DNA of 64,000 nucleotides from an uncultured cyanobacterium (GTDB taxonomy: Bacteria > Cyanobacteriota > Cyanobacteriia > Cyanobacteriales > CAWCAG01). A model generated the notes under the pieces. That model saw only the letters and a list, made by a program, of their open reading frames with translations. It was not told the origin of the DNA and did no database searches. The position numbers and the translations under genes are program-made. Positions 20,616-53,955 of this stretch are shown here, one piece after another. Location of the stretch: positions 39,085-103,084 of the forward strand of contig CAWCAG010000003.1 in NCBI GenBank assembly GCA_963793425.1, in the 5' to 3' direction. The stretch's first letter is position 1. Every line of letters begins with the position of its first letter.

Positions 20616-21095
20616 TTACCCCACCCAAAAATAAATCCCAGCAAGTGATAACCAAACAGGAGTTAGTTGACGAAAGAACAAACTTAGAACTAAAGTCAAA
20701 ATCAAAGCCCCTACATGAGCATGAAGGTCAAAGATTAGCCTCCCAGAAACCTCTCTAACTCCATTCCATTTAGCCTGCTTCTTACTTTTGAAATGGTTAA
20801 TTATCTCTCGTTCCAACAGCAACAATTTCTCTTGTGAGTAGCTAGGAAGAGGAAGATAATAGAGCCTTGCCCAAGGTAGTAATTGAGCTTTAGACAGCTT
20901 GTGATGTGTGTAGAATCCGCTACTATTCCAACGAGCATTAAGGTTGCTACTCATTCCCACATAAACTACTTCCCAGAAAGAAATTAATAGATAAATTCCT
21001 GGTTCTTTAGGTAACTGCTTTCGCTTCCATAACCAGACAGATTTGAGTGAAAGTCTGGGGTGTTTTAACTTGTACCTGGTTATCGCATTTAACAT
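20616..21095 (-). CDS. GIY-YIG nuclease-domain protein with C-terminal hydrophobic anchor (copy A)
   Basis: PGIY...VYVGMSSNLNARW...HHK, a conserved Glu helix and a hydrophobic C-terminus; paralog at 53345. Confidence 0.75.
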   Translation of the reverse strand: MLNAITRYKLKHPRLSLKSVWLWKRKQLPKEPGIYLLISFWEVVYVGMSSNLNARWNSSGFYTHHKLSKAQLLPWARLYYLPLPSYSQEKLLLLEREIINHFKSKKQAKWNGVREVSGRLIFDLHAHVGALILTLVLSLFFRQLTPVWLSLAGIYFWVG

Positions 21096-21163: not shown

Positions 21164-23371
21164 TCACCGCTTAACGGCAGTACTACGGCTAAAGGTCTTT
21201 TGCTGACAATTAGAGTTAAGGCAGTAAAAACGTGTTTTACCTCTGGGTTTAGTATTTCCGCTACCACAACTAGGGCAATGATATTTAATAGTATCTTGGA
21301 CATCAGACTGCCTGGACAGACTACCGCCTATAGGGAAATCTGTCCGAAATTCTGTCGGGTCAGACATCTCTCTACTAGTAAGTGCTTCAGGATTTACACC
21401 TTCTATCGCTTGTCCGAGTTGGGCAGCGCTTGGACACTTAAATTCGTTGCTACGTTCTTGAGCTAAACTAACAGTATCATAATCAAAAGAATAGCTATCT
21501 AGGCTAGGTAGAAAGAATAGCTTTGGTGAGCGCTCATCTGCAACTAAAACGAGACGGTATTCTTTGGCTTCATTGCCAATTAGTTTGTTTTGATTGATTA
21601 TCCACTCTTCTATATCTTCTAAGGTTGAACCTATCTTTTCTATGTTTTTGTTGCCGAGCTTTTTACCGTACATATCAACATATTCCCTAATCATCTTCGC
21701 TCCAAAGACAATCTCAGTAAAAAGGGTGTTTCTGTCGTTATTGGTGAAGCCTGGTAATACTTTGGTGTTAACTGATTGCCCAGCGATTATGAAGCCCATG
21801 TTAGTGTGGTGAGCTTGTTTTAAACAGGTTTTGAATTTCTCTCCTAACTCTTTGGGGTTACTAGCAGACATGAGGGAATTATCAAATTCATCCCATACCC
21901 ACAAATCAAAGATTTCTTTACGGTAAGCTACGTTCTTTTCTCTATATTTCCATTCTTTTTCAAAGTCAACAAAAGATTGGTGGGAAGCTTCCCAAGTCCG
22001 ATAATGCAAGAAGGGGTCTAGGGGATAGTTTACGTCTTTTTCACTACCATCTCGACCAGGATAGCTCACCTTGATGTTCATCAAAGGGACTTTCCTACCA
22101 GTTGGTTTGTTGGCGACTTTACCACCAATTTTTAACAGGTGAGAAACTAAGACGATGATGGTTGGGCTTTTGCCACTACCAGGTTTAGCTATTAACCTGA
22201 ACCTGTAAGACTGGTTTTCTAGGTACTGTAGAAATTCTTCAGGAGTACCTACTAAATCTTTAATGCTGTCTTGGGTTAGTGCTGGAAGTACCCGAAATGA
22301 GACAACTAAAAGAGCCGATAGTGGTGACTTCTCAAACTTAGTGATTTTATGGATTCCTAAATGTTGAGTCAATCGTTCCTGCTGGCTCTTGATAAAGCTC
22401 AAGATGGCTTCCGGGGAGTGTTTACTTGAGTAGCTAAAGCCAACGCTACTAATCCCGTTGTAATCGCCTTTAAGCCCTTCTAGCTTTAAAGGAATGGTCT
22501 GTTTAGATAAATCCCAAACTTCACGAGCAAATGCCCCTCCGAGTTTAATAATTGGGTCTAATGAGTCTTTGGGGTAATCAGGTTCTAGTAACTCACCATC
22601 TTTTTCTCTTTGTAGGAACTGGATTTGAGTTTCTCGCAGTTTGATAATCTTTCTTAAAGCAAGGGATTCTTCGTTAAATTGATGCCTGAATTTGTGTAGC
22701 AGTTCGTTATAGTTCTCTGCTGCCTGTCTACATCCTTGGGTCTTTAAACGTACCTCATCACGGCATTTGAGAATGATTCGCCGATACTCAGCGTCTAAAG
22801 AGCGCTGCTCCTTGAGCAAATTAAAGTCCTCATGACAAATCTGCTGAATATTTGTTTGCTTGATACGGGCTACTTCTGAGGCAATTTCTTCACTCAAGTC
22901 TTCTTCGTATTTCTTCGCCCATTCGGTAAGCTCAGAGTTTAAAGAGTCTATTTTTTCTTGGTTAGAGGCTATCGCCCGCTTTAGTTTCTCAATGTTAAAT
23001 TTCAGATTATCAATTTGCTGAGTCTGTACATTAGCGAATAACCCTACTTGTTCTAATTTCTTTTTCTTACCTTGGAGTTGAGCTTTGTGATACTTTAAAT
23101 CCCCTAAAAGCTCCTCATTTTTCATCTCTAGTCTGTAGAGCCTATTTAACTCTATTTTCTTCTCAGCTAGCGCCCTATCAACCTTAGAAAACTTTTTGGT
23201 AGCACGCTCATCCATTAAAAAACTAGCTATACCCGCAGCAGGTAATGCCCCTAATACAGAAGCCGCCGCTATTTTCCCAGGAGAGGTAGTTACTGCTGCT
23301 CCAAACAGAAAACCGATGGCGGCACTACAAGAAATACCGCCAATTGTTAGAATTAAATCTTCTTTTTTCAT
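21164..23371 (-). CDS. Membrane-anchored coiled-coil P-loop ATPase with C-terminal zinc ribbon, possibly FtsK/HerA-like (copy A)
   Basis: Two N-terminal hydrophobic segments, long coiled coil, AKPGSGKS, WVWDEFD, IIAGQS, CPSCGS...C....C. Confidence 0.75.
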   Translation of the reverse strand: MKKEDLILTIGGISCSAAIGFLFGAAVTTSPGKIAAASVLGALPAAGIASFLMDERATKKFSKVDRALAEKKIELNRLYRLEMKNEELLGDLKYHKAQLQGKKKKLEQVGLFANVQTQQIDNLKFNIEKLKRAIASNQEKIDSLNSELTEWAKKYEEDLSEEIASEVARIKQTNIQQICHEDFNLLKEQRSLDAEYRRIILKCRDEVRLKTQGCRQAAENYNELLHKFRHQFNEESLALRKIIKLRETQIQFLQREKDGELLEPDYPKDSLDPIIKLGGAFAREVWDLSKQTIPLKLEGLKGDYNGISSVGFSYSSKHSPEAILSFIKSQQERLTQHLGIHKITKFEKSPLSALLVVSFRVLPALTQDSIKDLVGTPEEFLQYLENQSYRFRLIAKPGSGKSPTIIVLVSHLLKIGGKVANKPTGRKVPLMNIKVSYPGRDGSEKDVNYPLDPFLHYRTWEASHQSFVDFEKEWKYREKNVAYRKEIFDLWVWDEFDNSLMSASNPKELGEKFKTCLKQAHHTNMGFIIAGQSVNTKVLPGFTNNDRNTLFTEIVFGAKMIREYVDMYGKKLGNKNIEKIGSTLEDIEEWIINQNKLIGNEAKEYRLVLVADERSPKLFFLPSLDSYSFDYDTVSLAQERSNEFKCPSAAQLGQAIEGVNPEALTSREMSDPTEFRTDFPIGGSLSRQSDVQDTIKYHCPSCGSGNTKPRGKTRFYCLNSNCQQKTFSRSTAVKR

Positions 23372-23547: not shown

Positions 23548-24210
23548 TCACCCATACTCACCTAACTTCTTTTGAAAAAGCTCCAATTCACCATCCAACT
23601 CATTGAGTTTGGTTTGGCTATCTTCTAGTTGATTAACCTGAATCTGTAACTCCAGGGCTAACTGCCCTTTGCTGATGGCGTTAGAGGCTATATCTTTGTA
23701 AGTTTTGGCTCTATTGAGGTCGTAGGCTATCGCTGCTTGTTTAGTGCCTTCTATATCGCTCTGTAGCCCGATATAATTACCTTTTGATTGCTCAATAGTA
23801 CGTTGGGTCGAAATGGCTGTGTTGAAAGCTTTGGCTCTGTCTCCAATAGCTCCATAAATGCTATTGTCGAGCTTGTATTTCTGGCGATGTAAGTCAACGG
23901 CATAGTTAGCCATCTCGTATTTGGTAGAGGCTTTGCTGTAAGTAGCTTTTGTTACTCCAGGAAGGCTCTCCGGAGGATTGAGCGGGTCATCAACCTCATA
24001 GTCTTTTAAAGGAAATTCAGGGGTATTAAATGAGGCATCAGCTAAATTAAATTCTGAAATACCTGGTATTTCGACCTTTCCAGATTTGATTATCTCTTCT
24101 GTTTTGAAAGGCGCTTTCCCTCGTCTCACTTCTTTAGTGCCTTGTCTAGTCAGGGTATTAGCTATTTTTGCAGCCCTGGTAGAAATAATTCCTGTAGATT
24201 TTTCAGCCAT
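23548..24210 (-). CDS. Hypothetical 220-aa protein with coiled-coil C-terminus (copy A)
   Basis: Closely similar paralog at 50305..50967. Confidence 0.8.
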   Translation of the reverse strand: MAEKSTGIISTRAAKIANTLTRQGTKEVRRGKAPFKTEEIIKSGKVEIPGISEFNLADASFNTPEFPLKDYEVDDPLNPPESLPGVTKATYSKASTKYEMANYAVDLHRQKYKLDNSIYGAIGDRAKAFNTAISTQRTIEQSKGNYIGLQSDIEGTKQAAIAYDLNRAKTYKDIASNAISKGQLALELQIQVNQLEDSQTKLNELDGELELFQKKLGEYG

Positions 24211-24386
24211 GATTTCCTGTTGCTAATAAGGGTGTTCGCTTTGATCTCAAGTTTGCGATGGCGCTCATCAAGTTCAAAGAGTTTTTGGTCTAGCCATTCC
24301 TCAAATTTGAATTCTTCTAAGCCATCTTCAATCTGCTCTAAGTCAGCTTCAGGAGGGGATTCAGTTGGTTCTGGGAGATTATTCAT
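24162..24386 (-). CDS. Hypothetical 74-aa protein (copy A)
   Basis: Paralog at 50129..50353 with the same overlaps to neighbouring genes. Confidence 0.75.
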   Translation of the reverse strand: MNNLPEPTESPPEADLEQIEDGLEEFKFEEWLDQKLFELDERHRKLEIKANTLISNRKSWLKNLQELFLPGLQK

Positions 24387-24612
24387 CTAGTCCCTCCCGT
24401 TTACGCTGTAATGCCTGTATTTTCTGGTCGAGTTCTGCTTGTTTTTTTTCTAAGGATGATAGGGATTCATCAAGCCAGTCTGGTGGTTGTGTCATTGCTT
24501 CTACTTCTTGATTGAGTTGTTGAAGTCTTTGCTCTAACTCTGGGGTTGTGGGAGGGGATGAATAAAGGTCCTCTAGCCTCTTTTTGTTTTCATTCAGTTC
24601 TTCTGGGGTCAT
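24379..24612 (-). CDS. Hypothetical 77-aa coiled-coil protein (copy A)
   Basis: Paralog at 49903..50136 (MTPEELNE...). Confidence 0.75.
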   Translation of the reverse strand: MTPEELNENKKRLEDLYSSPPTTPELEQRLQQLNQEVEAMTQPPDWLDESLSSLEKKQAELDQKIQALQRKREGLDE

Positions 24613-24689: not shown

Positions 24690-24848
24690 TTAGCGTCCAG
24701 CCCCTCTACACTGAGACGGTTGGGCTGTTAGAGGCACTGAGTCACTATTATTAGCCCAAAATACTGTTATTACCGCTATTCCTAGAGCTAGGGCTATACA
24801 GCCTACCCCGTATAACGTTTTAATGCCTGGGTATTTTCTTTTATTCAT
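24690..24848 (-). CDS. 52-aa signal-peptide microprotein ending CRGAGR, PatX/PatS-like (copy A)
   Basis: Translated by hand: MNKRKYPGIKTLYGVGCIALALGIAVITVFWANNSDSVPLTAQPSQCRGAGR*. The C-terminus is conserved with 49704..49826 through synonymous changes. Confidence 0.8.
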   Translation of the reverse strand: MNKRKYPGIKTLYGVGCIALALGIAVITVFWANNSDSVPLTAQPSQCRGAGR

Positions 24849-24885: not shown

Positions 24886-25080
24886 TTACGCTGCTTGTTT
24901 TGCTTGCTCAGAGGTGGCAGTTAGTTTAGAGCTAGCTGTCACCAATTTTTCTTGGTACTCTGCTATGTGGTAGAGCAGTTCCTCGATAGCGGGGTCGTCG
25001 TAGAAGCGTTGTAACTCTTGAAGTTGGGCTATTACTTCTCCGAGCTTGATAGAAGTCGTGTTAATTAGGTTTGTGTTCAT
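24886..25080 (-). CDS. Hypothetical 64-aa helical protein (copy A)
   Basis: Paralog at 49468..49665 (EELL.HIA.YQ.KLVT...QAA). Confidence 0.75.
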   Translation of the reverse strand: MNTNLINTTSIKLGEVIAQLQELQRFYDDPAIEELLYHIAEYQEKLVTASSKLTATSEQAKQAA

Positions 25081-25105
25081 TTCAGGCTAAAGTGATGGTT
25101 CGTTT

Positions 25106-25225
25106 TTAGTTTTTCGGTTGAACATTATTAATCTGCTGATTAGTACTTCCATCAATGAAATAGCCACCTGCTATCCCTACACCCAATAGCAATAGAGTAA
25201 GGAGCAGCATGATGATTACTTCCCC
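25106..25225 (-). CDS. -1-frame transmembrane extension of 25216..25977, or a separate small ORF
   Basis: GEVIIMLLLTLLLLGVGIAGGYFIDGSTNQQINNVQPKN* overlaps the GK* end of the upstream gene; homologous to 49274..49375. Confidence 0.65.
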   Translation of the reverse strand, partial: GEVIIMLLLTLLLLGVGIAGGYFIDGSTNQQINNVQPKN

Positions 25226-25977
25226 ACTAAGGAATTGAGGCTTTTTAACATTTCCCCCATCTGGTCAAGGGTCGCTTGGTTGGTATCCTTAGAAGCTTGG
25301 GCTTGTTGGCTCATCTCATGAAGTTTGGCAAGCTGGGTAATTTGGTTTTGTGCTGCCTGTGTTTGAGCGGCTACTTGGTTCGCTTCCTCTATCTGTTGAT
25401 GCGTCCTCGCTGTTGCTACCTCGATTAAGTCTTGCAGCTTGTCGTTGATTGATTTTTGTTTCAATATTTCGGGGGTGTCAACCTGTACTATTTCTGCATT
25501 TAGTACTGGTAGTTCTGGTAGGTCTGGGACTTCGATTTGATAGGGGTTAATAGCTTCTGAACACTCGCTTTCGGGGATTTGCTGTGCTTCAGGGTAAGTC
25601 GCTAAATGCTCACTAATTGGTAGATTTTCTATAAATTCCTTGGGGCTAACTCCAGATTCTTTTTGCTCATTCATTAGTTGAACCAAAGTGTTGAAGCCAT
25701 TCTCACTAATTTTTCTGCCGATATAGAACTCATACCCACTAGTTTCTAGGGGTTTAAGCCAGGTTTTGGTTAGATTCTGGCGAGTGGTTTGTAAAAAACT
25801 GGCAACTGCACTTTTGGTTGCGGGAAATTCAGGCAGACTTTGGTTCCCTCTAGTTACGTTTTTGGTTGCATCTGGTTGCTTGCAACTGGGACGTAACCCG
25901 CTTGTAACTGTTGCATCTTGGTTGCAGTTTCCAGTTTCAAATTCTTTAAATTCATTCACATCAATCTCTTTAGCCAT
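25216..25977 (-). CDS. Putative HTH and coiled-coil protein, first gene of the operon (copy A)
   Basis: TKSAVASFLQTTRQNLTKTW HTH-like segment; Q-rich coiled coil ending GK*; distant paralog at 48528. Confidence 0.7.
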   Translation of the reverse strand: MAKEIDVNEFKEFETGNCNQDATVTSGLRPSCKQPDATKNVTRGNQSLPEFPATKSAVASFLQTTRQNLTKTWLKPLETSGYEFYIGRKISENGFNTLVQLMNEQKESGVSPKEFIENLPISEHLATYPEAQQIPESECSEAINPYQIEVPDLPELPVLNAEIVQVDTPEILKQKSINDKLQDLIEVATARTHQQIEEANQVAAQTQAAQNQITQLAKLHEMSQQAQASKDTNQATLDQMGEMLKSLNSLVGK

Positions 25978-30493: not shown

Positions 30494-30568
30494 CACCCAA
30501 ATAATCAAATACAATGAATTGGAGATGGAGACATCCCCTACTTTGTTGTGTCTGTATATGTGAAATTG

Positions 30569-42995: not shown

Positions 42996-45900
42996 TTAGC
43001 CAGGGGCTTCAATCGCCGTGAGCCACTGATTAACTAAAGCTTGATGTGCCTTATCGAGTAACTTAATAGCCTGCTTCATTAAGTAGGAGGTGAAACCTTC
43101 AATCAAGTGACCGGCCGGGTAGAAAATCTCTCGAAAATCTTCCATTGACTTAAACGCCCCCAGAATCTCAGCCATTTCTTTAGCCCGTTTTCGCTCAATG
43201 CGCTTCTGCTCAAGCTCTGCGAGTTCTTCAGCTAATCTCTTTTCATCTCGTTCTAACCAAACCTGAAAGACTTCTTCTCTCTCATCAGCAATAGGGATCG
43301 CATGACCAAATTCATCAAGCAGAGGTTTATTACTTCCCTGTTCTGCTCGAACATAATCAACCACAACAGGGCCATAAACTTGCTCTTGATGCCCCGCGCT
43401 GCCTTCTTTCCTAAGTGCAGGCATATTTAACCCCAGCTTACGGAGAAACTGCTTAAAGATAACTATAGGAGAACTATTAGGGTTAATCTTAATCCCCAAC
43501 CATTCCTGAATACCCTTAGCTCCCAAGACACAGTTTTCTTTAAACTCAATTAAATCGGGGTCACTGTTACGGTGTTCTGCTTTGTTAGAGTACCTAAGTT
43601 CAGTAAATCCGACCGCATCAAGAGTTAACACTTTGCCAGATTTCAACCCTCGGTTAAAGTCAGGAGAGAAGTAGCGACCTTCATAGACTTTACTTTGGGC
43701 TTTCCTTCTATCCCTGTGGGGTAGGTGCTTACGACCTGTTCTTAACAAGTAGTCTGTGTTCCACTTACTGTAGACTCCTTGCTCATCAAGCTTAACCAGA
43801 GAGGGGGTAACTTCAATACCATACTTACTCTTGATCTGGGCTTTTTTAACCTGTCTCTGTTGTTGAGGTGTTTTGGTTTTCTGGTCTTCAAGCTGCTGTA
43901 ACTCCTCAACGGATAAGTCTTGTTCTTCTGGGACTTGGTGACAATAAGCCTCGTAATTGGTGTCCCTAACTTGTTTGATTTCCTTCTTCAATTCTATGGC
44001 GAGGTCATCATCCTTGCCAACATTTCTGATTGAGTAGCCTTCTGAAGTTAACCCAGCAACAATAGAAGCCCTGTAAGTCTTCATCTCTAAATTAATTCGC
44101 GCCGCAAATTGACACCAAGCTTTGAGTGCAGCGCCGCTAACTTCAGATAATTCCTCCCCTTCAAAGAATCCCCCAGCTTGGGCGAGTAAGGCTAAATGCT
44201 GCTTAGTTTGATTCTGTTGGCTAGCGTAAACCGCAGATTCAGAAGTTTTCCTATTACCCACCCAGTTCATACCTGTTTTGCTGCCCCAGAAGTAACGGGG
44301 AACATCTTCACGTACTCTCCTCAATGCCTGTCTGACACTATTTTCTGTTTGGACTCCATAAGCAATACACCAAACACTATCAAAGTGTCCACGAATATTA
44401 ATACTTACTCCGGTTTCAATAACAGGAGAGGCTAGGACGACATCGTAATATTTAAGCAACTCATTAAGCTTGTCGATACCTCCATAAGCAGGATGGTTGG
44501 GGTCAGCTAAAGACTCCCTGTCAATCCTCAAGACTTTTAGTTCTGGGTTTAATTCGAGTAGGCGTGCTTCTAAGGTTTTAGTCCCCCAAGTAGATTTATC
44601 TTTCTGCCCAGAAACACACACCATCGCTTTACCACCAGCAAGTATGTGCTTTTCTAAATCAGCGACCAGATGACCAGGGTTAGTTTCTGTGTAATTGTAA
44701 AGTTTTGTTTTCTTAGTTCTTTGGTCATCGGCGATGATAGTTAGGGTTCTAACTTTTCTTCCTAAAATGGCTTGGTAAAAATTAACGGTCAAATCATCCA
44801 GGTCAGCACTAGAAAGAATGATTTTGCCTCTAGTAGCGATAATATAGCGAAGAATTTCCCCCAACCTCTGGAAAATGGGAACTCGTTTTTTACCTACTTC
44901 GGTTTTGGAGTCTAGTAAGTGCCACAAAGACTGGTCAGCCTCATCAAGAATGACCCAGGCCCCATAAAGACTTTCTAATTCAAGTTCATCTCTGGCGACT
45001 TTAAGTAATGAATCAAAACATAATACTCTTCCATAGAATCTGGCTAGTTCGTCGGGGTTTTTGTCATTGACATTGGCTAAATAGAAGCGTTTCGCCTGTT
45101 CGTTATTTAAGGTTTGGCGGTGGGTCAAACTGAGGGTTTTACCACCGTGATATTGGTGTTCTGCTATCTTTTTGGCGAGAGCTTCTGTTTTTCCTGCTCC
45201 TTTAGGGGCGCGGATGAGAATGAGATTATTCTTTCTGAAGTTAGGTAAGTTTTCTAAATAGGGTGATTCGTCGCTCAGAACGGCTGTGTAGTCAGCTTTT
45301 ATGGTTAAGCGCTTCTGATGTCTTATCCAGAAAGAATGTAACTCCTCAGAAGCTTCTACCCTCTCCTCGAAAGCTTCTAGCCCCTGGTTATAGATAAAGT
45401 CATCACAGCCCTTACCAAGTTCTCCATTCCAGCGAATGACGGAAACATCACAGCCCAGGCGTTCTAATAATTTCCCTGTTGTATGAGTGGCAGCTGCCAC
45501 ATTATTGATAGTTGCTGCCTTAGAATCTTCGTCTAGGGCGAAATAGATTTTTCTGCCTCCCGTGGCGAAAATCTCTAGTTCTGGGATGAGGAAAGCTGGC
45601 CCTATTGCCTGGTTATATTCATCTTTTGGTCTGCGATAACCGTTATAGATACCAGGTAGTCCAATTGTTAAGAAGCCTTGAGAGATGAGACAAGCTGTTT
45701 TTTTTGCTCCTTCGGTGATGATGAGAGGAATTTGGGGATGGTCTATGGCCCACTGCCAAAATCCCAGAGCTTGCCCATCTTCACATTCTTGGTGGGCTTT
45801 GTGTCCGTCCGCAGGTGACGGTTGGGTCGCATCGGCAGAATTAACGTTTTCTGGTAGGGGTAGGTCAAAGCGATCTCCAATTGATTCCCAAGTCCCTAAG

Positions 45901-46262
45901 TCAACCAGTGGGCAGAAGGTTCTGGTCTTAGTTTTGATTGGTGTCTCATACTTGATCTGCTTCTGTTTGCCGTGGTCGTTATAGCTGCGGGGCTTATCGG
46001 GTTTAAAGGCTCCCCAATTACTCTCTTCTCTGGTTAAGGGGTCGATGGTTTTACACCAGAAGCCGCCTTTTTCTGTGTGGGCGTATTTGTTTAGATAGCG
46101 ATTTCTTAACCTGCCGTCGTTTCTCCTTTCTGAGCGAGGGAGGAAACTGGTTAGTCTTTCTGTTGGTTCTATTCCTTCTAGGGATTTGAAGTTGAGACTG
46201 GCGATTTCAGGGGAAATGGCGCTTTGAGTTAGTTCTTGGTAGTGCTTCGGGGTTAGGCTCAT
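42996..46262 (-). CDS. Plasmid replication protein, DUF3854 (Toprim-like) plus helicase, CyRepA1-like
   Basis: IITEGAKK, FALDED, KGCDD, RAPKGAGKT, ILDEAD, QALRRVR. Confidence 0.85.
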   Translation of the reverse strand: MSLTPKHYQELTQSAISPEIASLNFKSLEGIEPTERLTSFLPRSERRNDGRLRNRYLNKYAHTEKGGFWCKTIDPLTREESNWGAFKPDKPRSYNDHGKQKQIKYETPIKTKTRTFCPLVDLGTWESIGDRFDLPLPENVNSADATQPSPADGHKAHQECEDGQALGFWQWAIDHPQIPLIITEGAKKTACLISQGFLTIGLPGIYNGYRRPKDEYNQAIGPAFLIPELEIFATGGRKIYFALDEDSKAATINNVAAATHTTGKLLERLGCDVSVIRWNGELGKGCDDFIYNQGLEAFEERVEASEELHSFWIRHQKRLTIKADYTAVLSDESPYLENLPNFRKNNLILIRAPKGAGKTEALAKKIAEHQYHGGKTLSLTHRQTLNNEQAKRFYLANVNDKNPDELARFYGRVLCFDSLLKVARDELELESLYGAWVILDEADQSLWHLLDSKTEVGKKRVPIFQRLGEILRYIIATRGKIILSSADLDDLTVNFYQAILGRKVRTLTIIADDQRTKKTKLYNYTETNPGHLVADLEKHILAGGKAMVCVSGQKDKSTWGTKTLEARLLELNPELKVLRIDRESLADPNHPAYGGIDKLNELLKYYDVVLASPVIETGVSINIRGHFDSVWCIAYGVQTENSVRQALRRVREDVPRYFWGSKTGMNWVGNRKTSESAVYASQQNQTKQHLALLAQAGGFFEGEELSEVSGAALKAWCQFAARINLEMKTYRASIVAGLTSEGYSIRNVGKDDDLAIELKKEIKQVRDTNYEAYCHQVPEEQDLSVEELQQLEDQKTKTPQQQRQVKKAQIKSKYGIEVTPSLVKLDEQGVYSKWNTDYLLRTGRKHLPHRDRRKAQSKVYEGRYFSPDFNRGLKSGKVLTLDAVGFTELRYSNKAEHRNSDPDLIEFKENCVLGAKGIQEWLGIKINPNSSPIVIFKQFLRKLGLNMPALRKEGSAGHQEQVYGPVVVDYVRAEQGSNKPLLDEFGHAIPIADEREEVFQVWLERDEKRLAEELAELEQKRIERKRAKEMAEILGAFKSMEDFREIFYPAGHLIEGFTSYLMKQAIKLLDKAHQALVNQWLTAIEAPG

Positions 46263-46393
46263 TGCTTACCCCCGAATGTCAATATGTTTGAATCTTGAGC
46301 GTGGCGACAATCACTACAGATTTCAGAGCAGACGTGGCAAGGATTTGCTCTGTTAGTAGGAATAAGCTTACTCTTGGTGGGGACGTAAATCAT
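46259..46393 (-). CDS. 44-aa zinc-finger fragment homologous to the N-terminus of Rep 27056
   Basis: MIYVPTKSKLIPTNRANPCHVCSEICSDCRH versus MIYSPSKQRLIPTNRFNPCPVCSDISGDCRH; its stop overlaps the rep ATG. Confidence 0.7.
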   Translation of the reverse strand: MIYVPTKSKLIPTNRANPCHVCSEICSDCRHAQDSNILTFGGKQ

Positions 46394-46604
46394 TGTCCAC
46401 CACCCATTACTCAAGCTTAATTGTTTTGATTTAAGCAGCGGCCAGTTTAAAAGTTTGATGTTGGTCTTTTGGCATAACATAACGGGAACTCCCTGTTTGT
46501 GAGTCCCCAAAAGCGTTTATGTTAAGAGCTATTTCTTCCGTTTATGTAGCAAATGTCTGGTAAATTGTCTGACAAATTGACATAATAGACTTATATAAGT
46601 AAGA

Positions 46605-46725
46605 AAGTAATAAAGAGCGTCGCAAACTCAAAATCTTTCTTGAATAGCCCTCAAAAGTTCGTTGCTTTTAGGGATGTTAATTCAAACCCTGGTTGGATCT
46701 GTTAATCCACTGGGGTCTTTTCTTG
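46605..46725 (+). ncRNA. Candidate antisense copy-control RNA in the rep leader (copy B)
   Basis: CCCTCAAAAG...CTTTTAGGG hairpin and ACCCTGGTTGGAT...ATCCACTGGGGT hairpin followed by CTTTTCTT; homologous to copy A. Confidence 0.45.
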
Positions 46726-46958
46726 TTGGTGTCATTATAACCTGAGTCTTAACGCAAGCGGTCGCGCAAAGTTTTGCCCTATGCGGGTTTGTATCATAGT
46801 TAATAAAGTGTTTTCGTACAATAATACCGCTTGTGGTAAAAAAAAACTTGCTATTCATCACCTGTGTAGCTTTGATTGACGTACTCTTTAATCCCTATTA
46901 TTCATCAAGGCTCTGATACGTGAGGTGTTGTATTAACAGATTGTATTAGTCAATAATT

Positions 46959-47183
46959 TTATTCGCCCTCATTACTATCAATTCGTTCTTTACCTCTGGT
47001 CTTTTTAAACTCTTGAGTCGATTTGATAAAGTGCTGTGCCTTATTTAATCTCTCAATTTCGCTATATAACCCGTGCTGGATACATCGGCTACATACGGAT
47101 GAGAAAGATTCGCCCGTTTCCTCAGCTATTAATCTAATCACGTCCAAGTCGTGTTGACTCAATGTAATGGTTGTTTGGGGCAT
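46959..47183 (-). CDS. Small RHH/CopG-like regulator
   Basis: QTTITLSQHDLDVIRLIAEETGESFSSVCSRCI. Confidence 0.6.
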   Translation of the reverse strand: MPQTTITLSQHDLDVIRLIAEETGESFSSVCSRCIQHGLYSEIERLNKAQHFIKSTQEFKKTRGKERIDSNEGE

Positions 47184-47383
47184 AAATGTAAAACCACGTA
47201 TATATAATCCAGATTTATATTTTACAGTTTCATTATGGAGTATTTGAGAGAGTCCAATTCATATACTAATGTAAATTGCCTAATAACAATGTAAATATAC
47301 TTGTTATATTATTCAAATATGTATTAATATGTTTTTGTTGGCCGCAAAGATTGCAGCACACATTGCAACATTGCAGCCGCATA

Positions 47384-48492
47384 TAAGTAGTCAGTCAGAA
47401 TTAATTGTATATTACATAAATAAGCTCTTTTGAGAATAGCTTAGAGATAATCAAGGAATCAAAACCTGAGACTATTAAGTATAATTATGCGATATATAAA
47501 AGGATTAACCCCAGAAAACCTGAAAATGCTATCTCGAATATATAGAGAAAGTAAAAGTTATCAAGTCAGGCAAAGAGCGCACTGCATAACCTTAAGTTAT
47601 CAAAGGTACAAAATAGCAGAACTAATCAGCATTTTCCGAGTAAGCCGCAATACAATTTATAACTGGTTAAATAGTTGGGAAAAAAATGGCTTAGCAGGAC
47701 TTTATAACGAAAAAGGTCGCGGTAGGAAAGAGACATTCACCGAAGAAGAAAAAGCCAAAATCAAAGCCTGGATTAAAGATAATCCTCGGAAATTAGATTT
47801 AGTGCTTGAAAAAATCAAAAAAGAATGGGGGATTGAGACAAGTAAACAAACGATAAAGAGAGTAGCCAAAGCTTTATCGATGAGTTGGCATAGAATGAGA
47901 AGAAGGGTAGGAGGGAAGCCTGACCCCTTTGAATACCAGGATAAACTTGATGAGTTATCACAACTAATTGATCAAGAAAAACGCGCAGAGATAGAAATAA
48001 GATACTTAGATGAGGTTGGTTTTTGTTTGACACCTAATGTCCCTTATGCTTGGCAAGAAATAGGAACAACGGAAACGTTGAAAAGCCAAAGAAGTAGACA
48101 GTTAAATACTTTGGGCTTATTGAATAGAAAAAGCGAATTAGATAGCTATGTATTTGAATGTAGTATCAACAGTGAAGTTGTGGTAGCTTGCATAGATGAT
48201 TTCTGCTCTCGAATAACGAGTGAGACAGTATTAGTAATGGATCAAGCGTCAATTCACAGGACGCAACTACTTAAAGATAAACAAGCACAATGGCGTAAAT
48301 TGGGATTGACAATATTTTGGTTGCCCACTTATTCACCTCAACTTAACCTCATAGAGATATTGTGGAGAAAAATCAAATACGAATGGTTAGGTGCTAGTGC
48401 TTATGAGAGTTGGGCTGATTTAGTCAGCGCTGTGGAAAATATTCTCAAGAACGTAGGAGGAAAATATACAATTAATTTTGTTTAACTACTTA
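47384..48492 (+). mobile_element. IS630-family element (third type)
   Basis: Imperfect terminal repeats TAAGTAGT...AATTAATTGTATATT at both ends, with TA duplication. Confidence 0.9.
47487..48485 (+). CDS. IS630 transposase
   Basis: YLDEVGF, MDQASIH, PTYSPQLNLIE. Confidence 0.92.
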   Translation: MRYIKGLTPENLKMLSRIYRESKSYQVRQRAHCITLSYQRYKIAELISIFRVSRNTIYNWLNSWEKNGLAGLYNEKGRGRKETFTEEEKAKIKAWIKDNPRKLDLVLEKIKKEWGIETSKQTIKRVAKALSMSWHRMRRRVGGKPDPFEYQDKLDELSQLIDQEKRAEIEIRYLDEVGFCLTPNVPYAWQEIGTTETLKSQRSRQLNTLGLLNRKSELDSYVFECSINSEVVVACIDDFCSRITSETVLVMDQASIHRTQLLKDKQAQWRKLGLTIFWLPTYSPQLNLIEILWRKIKYEWLGASAYESWADLVSAVENILKNVGGKYTINFV

Positions 48493-48527
48493 TTGCAAAG
48501 GTTACAACAACAAATAGAAGCAACAAG

Positions 48528-49283
48528 ATGGCTAAAAACTTTGATACGCAAGATTTTCAGGTTATGGCAGATATAGACTGCCAACATGAAACCGAGGAAA
48601 TGATGGCAACAGACATTACAAACATTGCAATAGATAACGAAATGAACATCAGCAGCAACCAAGAAAAAACCTATACAGTCAAGGAACTCTGCAACGAGTT
48701 AGGTAAGGCAGAACGGACTGTTAGGGGATGGATTAAGACCGTTAAAGATACTTATTCTTGGCTTGATGAATCTGAAATTAGTTCTAAGCAAGGGCGTACA
48801 GTCTATTACACGGCGTTTACTCTTACTCAGCTTGAAGACATCAAAACTCACCTTGATGGTGGAGATACGCTTGATAGCTGGGTACAAACGGTGTCTATGG
48901 TAATAAGTCCAGAGAACCAAAAAGACTCCACAGAGGATATTGTCGAGCCTGCAAATGGGGCTTTGGCTACATACAACCCCAGTACCTTAGCTACTACTCC
49001 TAAATATGTTCCGGCTGAGTTAGTTACATATGACTTAGAACCGTTAGAGCAGCCATCTTTACTCGACCAACTCACCGAGCTAGCCGACACAGCCCAAGCA
49101 GAAGCAGAAGCAGAAGTAGAAAAAACACGCCAAGCTTCTGAAAACTCTAAAGTAGTACGCACGAAACTAACGCAATACGTGCAAGCGAAACAGACAGCAG
49201 AAGTGGCCAAACTAGATCGAGAAAAGCAGCAGCAAGAAGACGCAAAACTACTCTCCCAATTACAGCAGTTAATGGGAAAGTAG
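48528..49283 (+). CDS. HTH and coiled-coil protein, first gene of the operon (copy B)
   Basis: YTVKELCNELGKAERTVRGWI HTH; ends MGK*. Confidence 0.75.
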   Translation: MAKNFDTQDFQVMADIDCQHETEEMMATDITNIAIDNEMNISSNQEKTYTVKELCNELGKAERTVRGWIKTVKDTYSWLDESEISSKQGRTVYYTAFTLTQLEDIKTHLDGGDTLDSWVQTVSMVISPENQKDSTEDIVEPANGALATYNPSTLATTPKYVPAELVTYDLEPLEQPSLLDQLTELADTAQAEAEAEVEKTRQASENSKVVRTKLTQYVQAKQTAEVAKLDREKQQQEDAKLLSQLQQLMGK

Positions 49284-49375
49284 TCATCGGTCTAATCGTT
49301 GCTCTAGCAGTAGTTCTGACTGGAGTAGGGATAGGCTATTTCATCACTAACAACCAAATACATCATGGTCAATAA
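49274..49375 (+). CDS. -1-frame transmembrane extension of 48528..49283
   Basis: G GGA AAG heptamer directly before TAG; the -1 frame reads GKVVIGLIVALAVVLTGVGIGYFITNNQIHHGQ* and has no ATG/GTG/TTG of its own. Confidence 0.65.
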   Translation, partial: GKVVIGLIVALAVVLTGVGIGYFITNNQIHHGQ

Positions 49376-49467
49376 AAGAACAGACCCAAAGCTGGTTTTA
49401 GCTATTAGCTATTAGCTTTTAGCTTTTAGCTTCTGAATCATTTTTTTCTGATAACGCTCTAACGAAG

Positions 49468-49665
49468 ATGACCTCAATTAAACCACCAACTCCTTTGAGT
49501 ATTGCCCTCGGTAAGGCGATACACGAACTGCAAAAACGCCAACACCAAAACCCAGACAAAGAAACTGAGGAACTGCTTAATCACATAGCTACTTACCAAC
49601 AAAAATTAGTGACAGTTAGGTGTGAACTAACTGCCACAAATGAGAAAAAGACACAAGCTGCTTAA
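49468..49665 (+). CDS. Hypothetical 65-aa protein (copy B)
   Basis: Paralog of 24886..25080. Confidence 0.75.
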   Translation: MTSIKPPTPLSIALGKAIHELQKRQHQNPDKETEELLNHIATYQQKLVTVRCELTATNEKKTQAA

Positions 49666-49703
49666 AACTCGTTGACTCAAACTCATAGAACCCAATCATA
49701 GCA

Positions 49704-49826
49704 ATGAAAACCAGAAAAATCATAGCCTTAGCCCTCGTAGCCCTCCTGACATTTACCCTAGTCACTTTGGTCAACACCTCACCCCTTACAGCCCAAGCAT
49801 CCCAGTGTAGAGGCGCTGGAAGGTAA
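49704..49826 (+). CDS. 40-aa signal-peptide microprotein ending CRGAGR, PatX/PatS-like (copy B)
   Basis: Translated by hand: MKTRKIIALALVALLTFTLVTLVNTSPLTAQASQCRGAGR*. Same AATCATAGCA context before the ATG as copy A. Confidence 0.82.
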   Translation: MKTRKIIALALVALLTFTLVTLVNTSPLTAQASQCRGAGR

Positions 49827-49902
49827 AGAAAAACAGCTAGAAGTACTAATAACTGTACAGCTAGCTGTTGTCGCAGACTTAACTAATAAGGTGATAACTG
49901 TT

Positions 49903-50136
49903 ATGACCCCAGAAGAATTAAATGAAAGCAAACAGAGGTTAGAGAAGCTAATTTCATCCCCTCCCACAACCCCAGAATTAGAGCAAAAACTTCAACAACT
50001 CAATAAAAAGGTTGAAGCAATAACACAACCACCAGAGTGGCTCAATGAATCTCTAACATCTCTCGACAAAAAACAAGCAGAACTAGATCAGAAAATCAAA
50101 GACTTAAAGCGCAAACGGGAGGGAGTAGATGAATAA
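49903..50136 (+). CDS. Hypothetical 77-aa coiled-coil protein (copy B)
   Basis: Paralog of 24379..24612; ATG 49903 chosen by alignment. Confidence 0.75.
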   Translation: MTPEELNESKQRLEKLISSPPTTPELEQKLQQLNKKVEAITQPPEWLNESLTSLDKKQAELDQKIKDLKRKREGVDE

Positions 50137-50353
50137 TCTACCAGAACCAACCGAATCCCCTCCAGAAGCCGACTTAGAAATGATTGAGGATGGCTTAGAA
50201 GAGTTCAAATTTGAAGAATGGCTTGAAGGAGAACTAAAAAAACTTGATGAGCGCCACCGCAGATTAGAGATCAAAGCGAACACCCTTATTAGCAACAGAA
50301 AATCATGGCTGAAAAATCTACAGGAATTATTTCTACCAGGGCTGCCAAAATAG
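50129..50353 (+). CDS. Hypothetical 74-aa protein (copy B)
   Basis: Paralog of 24162..24386. Confidence 0.75.
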   Translation: MNNLPEPTESPPEADLEMIEDGLEEFKFEEWLEGELKKLDERHRRLEIKANTLISNRKSWLKNLQELFLPGLPK

Positions 50354-50967
50354 CGAATGCCCTTAATAAGCAAGGGACTAAAGAAGTGAGGCGAGGGAAA
50401 GCGCCTTTCAAAACAGAAGAGATAATCAAATCTGGAAAAGTCGAAGTACCAGGTATTTCGGAATTTAACTTAGCTGAAGCCTCGGTTAACACCCCGGAAT
50501 TTCCTTTAAGCGACTACGAGGTTGACGACCCGCTCAATCCTCCTGATAGCCTCCCTGGGGTGACTAAAGCTACCCATAGCCAAGCCTCAACCAAATACGA
50601 AATGGCTAACTATGCCGTTGACTTACATCGCCAAAAATACAAGCTCGACAATAACATTTATGGAGCTATTGGAGACAGAGCCAAAGCATTTGACACAGCC
50701 ATTTCGACCCAACGCACTATTGAGCAATCAAAAGGTAATTACATCGGGCTACAGAGCGATATAGAAGGCACTAAACAAAGTGCGATCGCCTACGACCTTA
50801 ATAGAGCTAAAACTTACAAAGATATAGCCTCAAACGCCATCAGCAAGGGGCAGTTAGCCCTGGAGTTACAGATTCAGGTTAACCAACTAGAAGATAGCCA
50901 AACCAAACTCGATGAGTTGGACGGTGAATTGGAGCTTTTTCAGAAAAGACTAGGTGAGTATCAGTAA
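50305..50967 (+). CDS. Hypothetical 220-aa protein (copy B)
   Basis: Paralog of 23548..24210. Confidence 0.8.
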   Translation: MAEKSTGIISTRAAKIANALNKQGTKEVRRGKAPFKTEEIIKSGKVEVPGISEFNLAEASVNTPEFPLSDYEVDDPLNPPDSLPGVTKATHSQASTKYEMANYAVDLHRQKYKLDNNIYGAIGDRAKAFDTAISTQRTIEQSKGNYIGLQSDIEGTKQSAIAYDLNRAKTYKDIASNAISKGQLALELQIQVNQLEDSQTKLDELDGELELFQKRLGEYQ

Positions 50968-51085
50968 TTAGCTTAGCTTCCAGTCGACGGGGAAGGGGAA
51001 AGAATCGACATATTTGGTTTTTGATAACCGGATTTTGTGTAGTCAGGGAGTAGCCCCTGGTGATAACGAGGGGCTAAAGATAACA

Positions 51086-53285
51086 ATGAAAAAAGAAGAT
51101 GTAATTCTAGCAATTGGTAGTATTTCTTGTAGTACAGCCATCGGTTTTCTATTTGGGGCTGCGGTAACTAGTTCTCCTGGGAAAATAGCGGCAGCTTCTA
51201 TATTGGGGGCATTACCTGCGGCTGGTATTTCTGGGATAGTAATCGACCACAAGGCTACTAAAAAGCTCTCTAAGGTCGATAGAGCGTTAGCTGAGAAGAA
51301 AGTAGAGCTAAATAGGCTCTACAGACTAGAGATGAAAAATGAGGAGCTTATCGGGGATTTAAAGTATCACAAAGCTCAACTCCAAGGTAAGACAAAGGAA
51401 CTCGAACAAGTAGGATTATTCGCTAATGTACAGACTCAGCAAATTGACAGTTAAAATCTAACATTGAGAAATTAAAACGGGCGATAGCCTCCAACCAAGA
51501 GGAAATAGACTCTCTTAAACTCTGAGCTTAAAGACTGGGCAAGGAAATACGAAGAAGACTTAGCAGAAGAAATCGCCTTAGAAGTAGCCCGTATTAAGCA
51601 AACAAATATTCAGCAGATTTGTCATGAGGACTTTAGCTTACTCAAAGAGCAGCGAACGCTTGATGCGGAGTACCGGGCTATTATTCTCAAATGCCGTGAT
51701 GAGGTACGTCTAAAGACTCAAGGCTGTCGCCAAGCAGCCGAGAACTATAACGAACTGCTACACAAATTCAGGCATCAATTCAGCACTGAATCTGAGGCCC
51801 TTAGAAAGATTATCAAACTGCGAGAAACTCAAATCCAGTTCCTACAAAGAGAAAAAGATGGTGAGTTACTAGAGCCGAATTACCCCAAAGACTCATTAGA
51901 CCCCATCATCAAACTCGGCGGGGCATTTGCTCGTGAAGTTTGGGATTTATCTAAGCAGATCTATCCCCTTGAGGCTAGAAGGGCTTAAAGGGGATTACAA
52001 CGGGATTAGTAGCGTTGGCTTTAGCTACTCAAGTAAACACTCCCCAGAAGCGATTCTAGGCTTCATTAAGAGCCAGCAGGAACGTCTAACCCAGCATCTA
52101 GGAATCCACAAAATTACCAAGTTTGAAAAGTCACCACTATCGGCTCTTCTGGTTGTCTCATTTAGAGTACTTCCAGCACTAACCCAAGACAGCATCAAAG
52201 AGCTAGTAGGTAGTGGTGAAGAGTTCCTAAAGTGGGTAGGGAATCAGTCTTACCGATTCCGCTTAATTGCTGCTCCAGGCTTCGGTAAATCTCCAACCAT
52301 CATTGTTCTGGTTTCCCACATTCTAAAAGTGGGAGGAAAAAGAGCGAATATTCCCAGTGGGCAGTTAATCCCAAACATTGATTTAACGCTCTCCTATCCA
52401 GGTATTGATGGTAGTGAGAAAGATATCGATTACCCGTTAGAGCCATTCGTTAAATATCGAACTTGGGAAGATGCCCACACTTCTTTTGCTGAGTTCCATG
52501 ATGAATGGAAGTACCGAGAAAAGCATAGAGAATACAGACAAGCCAGTTTTAGTTTATGGGTATGGGATGAATTCGATAATTCCCTAACTAGTGCTAGTAA
52601 TCCTAGAGAACTAGGCACAAGCTTTAAGGAGTGTTTGAAACAAGCACATCATACTAATATGGGGTTTATTATTGCTGGTCAATCGGTCAACACTAAAGCC
52701 TTACCCGGATTTACTAACAATGACCGCAATACTTTATTTACTGAGATTGTTTGCGGCATCCCGGTTATTCGTGAATTTCTCGATATGTATGGCAAAAAGC
52801 TAGGTAGTAAAAAGGTAGCTACTATCCTAGCTAATCTAGACAATATTGAAGAATGGACTAACAGTAAGAATAAAGCAATTACGGATACAGCACGAGAATA
52901 TAGAGTAGTGCTAGCAGTTGATGAGAAAAGTCCTAAACTATTTTTCTTACCTAATCTAGATAACTACGATTTAGATAAGCAAACTGTTAGTAATTCAGTG
53001 GAAAATCAAGTACCAATTGATGAAAAAGCGACTACCAGAGATTACCAACTTACCAAAGCTGAAACTACTGCAACTGAGTCAAGCAAAGACTCTCAGCCAT
53101 TACCAGCTAATTTGCCAGAAAACCCTATGTCCCCCTCTGGGACACCTTACCAAAATACTAGTAAACCTCATTGTCCTGGTTGCGGTAGTAGTAATGTAGG
53201 TAGCAGAGGAAAAGGTCGTTTCACTTGTAAGAATAGTAGCTGTAAAAGAAAGTCATTTTCTGAAAGTAAAGCTGTATGGAAGTAG
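51086..53285 (+). pseudogene. Membrane P-loop ATPase (copy B), frameshifted
   Basis: Colinear with 21164..23371, with indels near 51450, 51518 and 51960; retains AAPGFGKS, WVWDEFD and the zinc ribbon. Confidence 0.8.
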
Positions 53286-53344
53286 TAGGACTGTTTAATT
53301 AGCCTTACGGTTTATTACTGTGGAGCTTTTATTGAAGAAAAGTA

Positions 53345-53824
53345 ATGTTAACTCAATTCAGATTAAAACATCCCAGGCTAGCGCTAAATTCCGTTAGCCT
53401 TAACAAGCGCCGAAAACTTCCCCACGAACCAGGAATCTACCTTTTGATTTCTTTTTGGGAGGTAGCTTACGTAGGTATGAGTACTAATCTATTCAATCGG
53501 TGGAATGGATATCACCATAAGATTGAATATGCTCAACTATTACCCCTCCCAAGACTTTATTATCTTCCCCTTAATGAGTGGTCAGATAAACGATTAAAGA
53601 AGCTAGAAACTAAAATTAAACACCATTATCAAGCTAAGAATCAGGCTAAATGGAATGACATTACTGTAATCCCTAAACATTATATTTGGGAACTCTGGCG
53701 AGATTTAGTGGTGGTCGTAGTAATGATTATGATGAGTTTGCTAATGAGACAGATGATAGCTATCTGGCTTATTTTTGGTGGTTTCTATTTTTGCTATGAG
53801 GGGCGAAAAAGACCAAGAGAATAA
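53345..53824 (+). CDS. GIY-YIG protein with C-terminal hydrophobic anchor (copy B)
   Basis: EPGIYLLISFWEVAYVGMSTNLFNRWNGYHHK; hydrophobic tail. Confidence 0.75.
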   Translation: MLTQFRLKHPRLALNSVSLNKRRKLPHEPGIYLLISFWEVAYVGMSTNLFNRWNGYHHKIEYAQLLPLPRLYYLPLNEWSDKRLKKLETKIKHHYQAKNQAKWNDITVIPKHYIWELWRDLVVVVVMIMMSLLMRQMIAIWLIFGGFYFCYEGRKRPRE

Positions 53825-53955
53825 CTACATCAAATCTCCAACGCCTCATTAGTTAACCCCAGTCTGGATGATCACGGCGGGAGTTTATTTTTTGTGGGGT
53901 TAGTTGTTTTGCTCAGTAAAATAGAGAGTAGCTTCTAAACGGAACTGAACAAGCC

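Follow-up and report, generated by a model that had tools for sequence, protein, structure and literature searches.

The micro-ORF at positions 49704..49826 of the window, by which we mean the whole 64,000-nucleotide stretch of DNA analysed here, belongs on the evidence of its sequence to a small family of signal-peptide microproteins that had not been named before and that share the tail R-G-x-[G/S]-R(R). This ORF (copy B) is a real gene under purifying selection and an accessory member of a plasmid operon, conserved among filamentous cyanobacteria with hetR, that, to judge from a structural model, is built around a membrane-anchored DNA-translocase-like ATPase. In predicted architecture and in motif, the plasmid peptide is a look-alike of PatX. 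The reading that we favour, tentatively and at somewhat less than an even chance, is that of an exported PatX-like peptide targeting the HetR pocket.

The micro-ORF and its paralogs

Copy B starts with ATG, encodes 40 amino acids followed by a stop codon, and runs from MKTRK through an 18-residue hydrophobic core and PLTAQA to SQCRGAGR. The original prediction, a 40-aa ORF made up mostly of signal peptide followed by SQCRGAGR, was confirmed exactly at these coordinates. The peptide copies and the predicted elements of copy B are as follows.

24690..24848, (-) strand: copy A micro-ORF, 52 aa, ending PLTAQPSQCRGAGR with the tail PSQCRGAGR, located by a six-frame motif scan
49672..49699, (+) strand: promoter-like TTGACT-16 nt-AATCAT, ending 4 nt before the ATG of copy B, a consensus match only
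49704..49826, (+) strand: copy B micro-ORF
49704..49793, (+) strand: predicted Sec-type signal peptide of copy B, residues 1-30, with n-region MKTRK, 18-residue core and c-region NTSPLTA
49794..49823, (+) strand: predicted mature peptide QASQCRGAGR, a 10-mer whose RGAGR core resembles the RG(S/T)GR of PatS, PatX and HetN
Genome contig C2 at 23670, (+) strand: third copy (C2), 40 aa, ending SVTAQASQCRGAGR

The last eight residues are identical in all three copies; the tail had been predicted to be common to two modules, and it is in fact common to three. Copies A and B are 59% identical overall and agree at 13 of 14 positions in the tail, whereas the intergenic DNA 3' of the stop codon is unrelated between them. 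Copy A is a called gene in the public protein collection (P0002). The spacing and -10 hexamer of the promoter-like element upstream of copy B can also be read for copy A (-35 TTAACT) and for C2 (TTGACT), and the copy B transcript could be leaderless or near-leaderless; one promoter-like site was found in the copy B region against 3.2 expected from shuffles.

Evidence that copy B is a gene

Sixteen codons differ between copy B and C2, of which 12 are synonymous and 4 non-synonymous. The corresponding Nei-Gojobori estimates in the RGAGR frame were pS 0.487 and pN 0.061 (dN/dS 0.08), whereas the two shifted frames gave dN/dS values of 0.87 and 4.7. Between copies A and B, the last 14 codons contain five synonymous changes and one non-synonymous change, and the final Arg is encoded by CGC in one and AGG in the other. 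An earlier concern was that the overlapping frame (SVEALEGKEKQ) might be the translated one; this frame is closed by stops in copies A and C2 and shows a non-coding substitution pattern, and it was rejected as a real feature. Genome-wide, 40,943 small ORFs of 25-110 aa were counted, including 6,369 with a hydrophobic N-terminus, and only four of the latter carry RG.[GS]R in their last 8 residues, namely these three paralogs and one unrelated ORF. Purifying selection on a real gene follows from the codon pattern, the dN/dS ratio, the closed overlapping frame and the genome-wide rarity of the tail; the gene is probably translated. Rfam gave no matches within the window, and the peptide matched no family in Pfam, NCBIfam or PHROGs.

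A plasmid operon around an FtsK/TcpA-like ATPase

The window is part of a 103-kb plasmid-like contig (C3) that carries ParA genes, a relaxase, two DUF3854/helicase Rep-like genes, a type I restriction system, AbiE and IS630-type transposases. Copies A and B each lie in a module of related genes, listed below.

48528..49283, (+) strand: first gene of module B, 251 aa, with a weak HTH match, 23% identical to 25216..25977 of module A
49468..49665, (+) strand: gene upstream of copy B, 65 aa, 55% identical to 24886..25080 of module A
49903..50136, (+) strand: coiled-coil gene downstream of copy B, 77 aa, 79% identical to 24379..24612
50129..50353, (+) strand: 74-aa gene, 89% identical to 24162..24386
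50305..50967, (+) strand: 220-aa anchor protein, 93% identical to 23548..24210
51014..53285, (+) strand: FtsK/TcpA-like ATPase gene of module B, with two frameshifts (ORFs 51014..51454 and 51927..53285)
21164..23371, (-) strand: intact FtsK/TcpA-like protein of module A, 735 aa, with a membrane anchor, a long coiled coil, an ATPase domain and a C-terminal zinc ribbon
20616..21095, (-) strand: GIY-YIG-like gene closing module A (E 2.8e-4, below the Pfam cut-off), 52% identical to 53345..53824
25106..25210, (-) strand: 34-aa membrane ORF, among the tiny genes of the module

Identity between the two modules increases along the operon up to the 220-aa protein and decreases thereafter. The 735-aa protein is 84% identical in its N-terminal part and 66% identical in its C-terminal part, and the corresponding value for the Rep-like protein is 28%. 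None of the module proteins matched a curated family. In plasmids of Nostoc and Tolypothrix, the gene at the position of the GIY-YIG-like gene carries a GIY-YIG nuclease annotation. The 735-aa protein was modelled with AF2 from a 24-sequence alignment (mean pLDDT 73.9), and the best Foldseek matches of its ATPase part were 6t8o, the motor domain of FtsK (E 2e-11), and 6o1x, the coupling protein TcpA of pCW3 (E 1.2e-10). The lead obtained from the ESM Atlas agrees with this FtsK/TcpA-like assignment. The family of the 735-aa protein has at least 191 members, there are FtsK-like proteins from ENA (P0007-P0010) with 56-66% identity, and every family member with an organism name comes from a filamentous cyanobacterium.

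Distribution of the module and members of the peptide family

With the 220-aa protein as an anchor, further occurrences of the module were located. Matches came from 7 genomes out of 401 from the order (this genome included), 8 plasmids in PLSDB that belong to Nostoc or Tolypothrix and of which several are linear and encode a protelomerase, 10 metagenome loci, and 8 of 52 genomes of one family, which yielded 29 loci, four of them repeating earlier ones. Altogether, 54 distinct module loci were retrieved. A hydrophobic-start micro-ORF with an RG.[GS]R tail occupies the slot directly upstream of the small coiled-coil genes in 6 of the 54 (copies A, B and C2, genome G027, Nostoc plasmid pNPM10 and metagenome locus L052). 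The peptide gene is absent from 47 of the 54 distinct loci examined, several of which are truncated upstream, and the fourth module of this genome (contig C4) is likewise without it.

A word-indexed search of 5.8 billion proteins returned a single homolog (P0001), a 40-aa protein from a Spirulinaceae MAG with 78% identity, whose tail is QCRGGGR and which ends LPVTANQTQCRGGGR. It shares a 4,357-nt contig with an 87%-identical homolog of the 735-aa protein of the module. A profile search over 1.84 billion representative proteins recovered only P0001 and copy A, and contigs from four DNA runs of one study contained only paralog or strain variants and a loose end matching the P0001 allele. In the same genus, G027 encodes a 51-aa homolog ending QTRGSSRR. 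Further members occupy the slot in Nostoc N6 plasmid pNPM10, an annotated 51-aa CDS ending PEQPEQPKHRGDGRR, and in L052, a 52-aa ORF ending QQPQQPTPLYRGVSRR; both have a hydrophobic N-terminus and an AXA-like site. The tails across the family read RGAGR, RGGGR, RGDGRR, RGVSRR or RGSSRR, and a signal peptide followed by a short R-G-x-[G/S]-R(R) tail is, from these sequences, the apparent family trait. Two slot peptides depart from the motif: a 55-aa signal-peptide CDS of Nostoc C052 plasmid pC052_H that ends YKGQGKRELKG and has no Arg pair, and an unannotated 35-aa ORF of Tolypothrix that ends AHSNRR.

In the ESM Atlas, the best score for the peptide was 0.86, to unnamed clusters. The pattern [PS][LV]TA[QN][AQP][ST]QCR occurred at two loci in species-representative genomes (a Chromatiaceae MAG and an Ilumatobacteraceae MAG), which were taken as chance occurrences, and a weak tail match in genome G363 (E 0.89) was discarded as an Arg-rich stretch in the wrong frame.

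Predicted signal peptide and cleavage site, and the tail

The maximum 12-residue Kyte-Doolittle hydropathy of copy B was 2.99. Small residues stand at -3 and -1 in the c-region, and the c-region is helix-breaking in every family member. An x-T-A|Q/N site is common to five homologs, and the Nostoc peptides have an AXA-like site in its place. Cleavage most likely occurs after T29-A30, with a cut after A32 (AQA) as the alternative. The canonical A-Q-A site that had been proposed exists in copies B and C2, but copy A reads A-Q-P there and the homologs have VTA|N and ATA|N. Similarly, the proposed mature product of 8-10 residues can be narrowed, since the site in the homologs makes cleavage after T-A the likelier event, which would give the 10-mer QASQCRGAGR.

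The layout foreseen by the original prediction, in which a signal peptide leads into a very short, conserved C-terminus, was borne out by the comparison among family members. Conservation is lowest in the hydrophobic core and highest in the c-region and the tail, as expected where a signal peptide is cleaved off to leave a functional mature peptide. In contrast, the suggestion that the Cys might dimerise or be modified did not hold up: homologs have T, H or Y at this position, so that Cys chemistry is not a family trait. The lipobox of bacterial lipoproteins has the consensus [LVI][ASTVI][GAS]C with an invariant Cys at +1. A bacterial lipoprotein, for example a VirB7-like lipoprotein of a type IV secretion system (T4SS), was considered and rejected, as A-S-Q precedes the Cys of copy B, with Q at -1, and the Cys is replaced in the homologs.

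Likeness to PatX, PatS and HetN

The plasmid peptide was compared with PatX as defined by Elhai and Khudyakov (2018), in the form in which PMC7761841, PMC11298460 and PMC12756182 give the definition. A hydrophobic, Sec-type N-terminus on a small protein is predicted for copy B. In place of the pentapeptide RG(S/T)GR, however, the plasmid peptide has RGAGR, and the copies on C3 and C2 do not lie near and upstream of hetR, a position that is common but not universal for patX. The NCBIfam model heterocyst_PatX (NF047413; PMC12756182 Table S3) gave no match at E<=10 to any of the three copies; this model appears to be narrow, because the hetR-linked ORF of the same genome is also missed. Three tested PatX features are therefore lacking in the plasmid peptide, namely the S/T residue, the linkage to hetR and the HMM match.

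PatX (Asl2332 in Anabaena/Nostoc PCC 7120) is exported as the precursor of HRGTGR, a hexapeptide that inhibits HetR. Like PatX, the plasmid peptides are small ORFs with an N-terminal Sec-type signal and a short, basic C-terminal R-G-x-G-R, often followed by another R; some slot peptides of Nostoc plasmids also have a Pro/Gln-rich linker and H or Y before RG, and the host range is that of filamentous cyanobacteria with hetR. Unlike PatX, they are encoded on plasmids in an FtsK-like operon rather than upstream of hetR, they are much shorter, and the RGAGR copies have no linker. The TCCGGA (DIF1) motif was not found near copies A or B, and its four sites in the window all lie elsewhere. PatS is matched in that the pentapeptide stands at the very C-terminus and both arginines and both glycines are kept in RGAGR. 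According to PMC7761841, PatS, a 17-aa precursor with C-terminal RGSGR, has no Sec signal peptide, and HetN, with an internal RGSGR, is a reductase-like protein.

A PatX-like ORF lies no more than 1.3 kb upstream of hetR in 14 of the 30 loci compared, with RGSGR in 12 and RGTGR in 2, mostly as HRGSGRR. None of the five distinct plasmid RG tails was counted as having S or T as the middle residue (A, G, D, V and S-S). An hhalign comparison between profiles of seven plasmid peptides and of ten of the 14 hetR-linked ORFs gave a probability of 94.9 and an E-value of 4.7e-8 over only nine columns (xRGxGRRxx). Four of the 14 were left out of the PatX profile: a long ORF, a near-duplicate, an ORF that lacks a signal peptide and a partial ORF.

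The host HetR circuit and a candidate target

The genome contains one hetR, located on contig C5 (L001:1342-2241), whereas the peptide copies lie on C3 and C2. About 250 nt upstream of hetR, a 71-aa signal-peptide ORF with ERGSGR represents the canonical patX in its classical position. A motif scan of the genome found no PatS-type ORF ending RGSGR and no long HetN-type ORF with an internal RGSGR. A gene of the S13 peptidase family is present, and no second hood-domain protein was found in the genome.

The study of the HetR complex (PMC4649674) describes PatS-6 as a beta-strand against beta3 of the HetR hood domain, with its two arginines bonded to E253, D270' and D278'. Most PatS-6 contacts come from the side chains of the two arginines and from the main chain, the Ser makes one hydrogen bond to E253, and E254 contributes to binding in the HetR-PatS6 structure. 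The host HetR keeps E253, D256, D270, D278 and R223, none of which varies in an alignment of 16 HetRs (those from the 30 loci whose ORF is exactly 299 aa long); position 254 is T in this genus. For PatX, PMC12756182 describes a Sec signal and export that is needed for activity, processing by the S13 peptidase PatP, and a Kd of 88 nM for HRGTGR-HetR.

In the mechanism that we propose, the pro-peptide would be exported through Sec and cut by signal peptidase after T-A, leaving a peptide of about ten residues (QASQCRGAGR) in the periplasm, where a periplasmic peptidase may trim it further, as PatP does PatX. The released RGAGR peptide would then pass between the cells of the filament and occupy the PatS/PatX pocket of the HetR hood domain, with its two arginines directed to E253, D270' and D278' and its backbone paired with strand beta3. 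It could act there as a weaker inhibitor or as a competitor of the ERGSGR signal of the host, and the plasmids would thereby feed an input of their own into the HetR circuit. HetR was ranked first as the candidate target because the tail is invariant at just those positions through which the peptide makes most of its contacts in the solved complex, because the host range of the peptide equals that of HetR, and because no neighbouring receptor candidate co-varies with the peptide. With regard to the last point, the HTH proteins next to copies A and B are only 23% identical while the tails are identical, which argues against a co-evolving plasmid receptor next door.

Several observations on the tails and on HetR count against HetR as the target. 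The tail RGDGRR would place an acid beside E253, RGSSRR and RGVSRR are without the second Gly, and the C052 slot peptide (KGQGKRELKG) has K instead of R. The avoidance of S and T at the middle position of the plasmid tails contrasts with the 14 hetR-linked ORFs, all of which have one or the other, and the peptide gene is missing from most module loci, as described above. The lack of a match to NF047413 and of a DIF1 motif near copies A and B also speaks against this target. HetR of the same genus has T at position 254, and in Leptolyngbya BL0902, which is non-heterocystous, the effects of PatX on transcription looked independent of HetR (PMC11298460).

Alternative explanations

A doubtful but live possibility, and the main rival, is that the peptide serves plasmid self-sensing in the manner of Phr (ICEBs1/pLS20), arbitrium AimP or iCF10: the exported tail would report the density of plasmid carriers, and a receptor other than HetR, plasmid-encoded or not, would tune the operon with the FtsK/TcpA-like translocase and so control how the plasmid is transferred or spreads through the filament. 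PhrI of ICEBs1, Phr of pLS20 and AimP of SPbeta-like phages are encoded on mobile elements, consist of a signal peptide and a C-terminal 5-10-mer, and vary in sequence between elements. The enterococcal peptides iCF10 (from PrgQ) and iAD1 come from tiny plasmid ORFs that are nearly all signal sequence, with the C-terminal 7-8 residues secreted; they interfere with a host-encoded peptide signal of similar sequence and govern conjugation. Copy B shares with Phr and arbitrium the small precursor with a signal peptide and a C-terminal peptide on a mobile element, here in a context of ParA, a relaxase and a Rep-like helicase, and its layout is also that of the Phr and PrgQ precursors. An operon with an FtsK/TcpA-like coupling-type ATPase on a plasmid with a relaxase would suit such a role, as would one identical tail in three co-resident modules and a middle residue that varies with the plasmid lineage (A, G, D, V, S) in the way specificity positions do.

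The receptor is where self-sensing meets its main difficulty. To our knowledge, Phr and arbitrium genes always adjoin the gene of a TPR-type RRNPP receptor, and here the neighbouring genes do not include one. A scan of 56 window proteins at E<=0.01 found no TPR/RRNPP-type family, in agreement with what had been predicted for the window, and a host or novel receptor is thereby implied. The only regulator candidates nearby are the HTH proteins, which diverge between modules A and B although the peptides are identical. A further point against self-sensing is that so many module loci (47 of 54) do without such a peptide, and the R-G-x-G-R match to the one cyanobacterial peptide signal known to us would be left as a coincidence. 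Phr and arbitrium are Firmicutes systems, with motifs unrelated to the RGAGR of the plasmid. The iCF10 and iAD1 peptides are hydrophobic and act on the plasmid receptor PrgX/TraA, whereas the RGAGR tail is basic and the host signal that it resembles is the PatX/HetR morphogen. The likeness to Phr and arbitrium pro-peptides drawn in the original prediction is hence only partly upheld: the closest analogue is PatX/PatS, with RG[S/T]GR and HetR as target, and Phr-like self-sensing is kept as a rival.

A more far-reaching form of the HetR reading, which we consider rather unlikely, is that the plasmids carry morphogen mimics. Secreted RGxGR peptides would diffuse along the filament and engage HetR as weak agonists or PatX antagonists, and the plasmid would steer the differentiation, fragmentation or death of neighbouring cells toward its own spread via the FtsK-like translocase, with the middle residue tuning the pull in each lineage.

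It is distinctly unlikely that the product is a non-signalling structural or accessory envelope protein of the plasmid DNA-translocation apparatus, be it a signal-anchor that stays uncleaved (N-in/C-out) and exposes a basic tail to the periplasm, or a short periplasmic peptide that binds another module protein. The neighbouring genes do include several tiny ones of unknown function, the 34-aa membrane ORF among them, the hydrophobic segment could span the membrane with its 18-20 residues, and the tail is basic and Gly-rich in all members. The conservation is nevertheless distributed the wrong way round for an anchor, the tail being far better conserved than the hydrophobic core between copies A and B; all members have the helix-breaking c-region with small -3 and -1 residues, and the gene is dispensable in most modules.

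Finally, the idea that copy B is not a gene, that is, a chance ORF in a conserved intergenic or regulatory region where the overlapping frame or an RNA element is the real feature, is highly improbable and nearly excluded: copy B is uncalled in the public protein collection (no self-match) and the peptide has no Rfam or Pfam family, but the low dN/dS is confined to the RGAGR frame, the alternative frame has stops in copies A and C2, homologs in two other genomes keep the frame with indels in multiples of three, and copy A and the Nostoc slot peptide are annotated CDSs.

Novelty and significance

PatS, PatX and HetN acting on HetR form the textbook bacterial diffusible-inhibitor patterning system, and the sources of RG(S/T)GR known to us so far are all chromosomal. 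A literature search found no paper with both RGAGR and HetR, and among the matches listed for 'rgagr' all were off-topic. PMC12756182 Table S3 uses the word 'plasmid' three times, at least twice for PatP homologs rather than for PatX; plasmid copies of PatX may have been mentioned earlier in the literature.

If HetR is the target, this peptide would be the first case of a mobile element plugged into the HetR circuit via an exported look-alike. This genome has three plasmid copies beside a single canonical source, its patX, and variant tails recur on Nostoc plasmids. In either case, the natural series of middle residues (A, G, D, V and S) provides a ready set for structure-activity work on the HetR pocket. 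Should the receptor be another protein than HetR, the family would constitute the first peptide communication system described for cyanobacterial plasmids.

Two plasmid backbones on one contig

The contig carried a head-to-head pair of related backbones (window 20600-30500 and 42990-53900), in each of which a Rep-like DUF3854/helicase gene was divergent from the module. Identity between the two was highly variable along the operon, ranging from 23% to 93%; together with the head-to-head arrangement, this uneven identity suggests that the contig is a cointegrate of two plasmids whose central segment has recombined. The two modules also differed in small elements beside their HTH genes.

Small elements beside the HTH genes of modules A and B
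25106-25210, - strand: 34-aa hydrophobic micro-ORF of module A, overlapping the stop of the HTH gene
about 49283-49375, + strand: module B counterpart of the micro-ORF
49385-49440, + strand: run of TTAGCTA/T-type heptamer repeats in module B, flanked by the HTH and 65-aa genes

The module B counterpart of the micro-ORF retained the GYFI core and had no ATG, GTG, or TTG start codon. Heptamer repeats of the TTAGCTA/T type were absent from module A in the alignment of the two modules.

Variant slot peptides and alleles

The microprotein slot, located just upstream of the small coiled-coil genes, was also occupied in Tolypothrix sp. PCC 7712.

L015:3277-3384: unannotated 35-aa slot ORF on Tolypothrix plasmid unnamed12

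A signal peptide (…SPALA|Q) is clearly recognisable in this ORF, which occupies the same module slot; the slot peptide ends in AHSNRR and lacks the RG motif. Alleles were compared between window 49400-50200 and contigs from four sediment metagenome runs containing the plasmid (X1-X4, from a single study). One contig end, at window position 49771, ran on into an allele whose encoded tail region (…HTLPVTANQT) is of the type of P0001, the Spirulinaceae homolog with the tail QCRGGGR; given this continuation, RGGGR and RGAGR variants occurred together in one study.

Other plasmid cargo

35723-42294, - strand: type I restriction-modification operon
1051-8802, - strand, and 9141-15746, + strand: Calx-beta/TPS-domain gene cluster

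In the restriction-modification operon, a HEPN/nucleotidyltransferase pair sits between hsdM and hsdS, and the hsdM ORF, adjoining an IS630-type transposase, is seemingly short (300 aa). The protein of 2,583 aa encoded in the second cluster (window 1051-15746) contains nine Calx-beta repeats, and its gene lies alongside an M50 peptidase-like gene, an HlyD-like gene, and a gene for a 1,231-aa TPS-domain beta-helix protein; these genes constitute a plasmid secretion cargo cluster.

Chromosomal patX-hetR locus

C5:352901-354263 (locus L001:879-2241): patX-like ORF and hetR

The patX-like ORF (71 aa) contains ERGSGR followed by 8 further residues, with hetR directly downstream. Position 254 of the host HetR is T, whereas most HetRs have E. 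A motif scan of the genome retrieved no patS-type or hetN-type ORFs, which fits a non-heterocystous filamentous host.

FtsK/TcpA-like protein

21164-23371, - strand: intact FtsK/TcpA-like gene of module A (735-aa protein)
51014-53285, + strand: interrupted module B copy

In the 735-aa protein, which belonged to no Pfam family, a membrane anchor is combined with a coiled coil about 200 residues long and an FtsK/TcpA-like ATPase fold, and a zinc ribbon is present at the C-terminus. Two frameshifts (window 51440-51930, + strand) break the module B gene into a 146-aa ORF and a 452-aa ORF, with a short intervening stretch in a different frame. At least 191 homologs of the 735-aa protein were found; all those named to an organism came from filamentous cyanobacteria, and many were located on linear protelomerase plasmids of Nostoc. 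The protein could be a dsDNA translocase serving plasmid transfer or spread along the filament.
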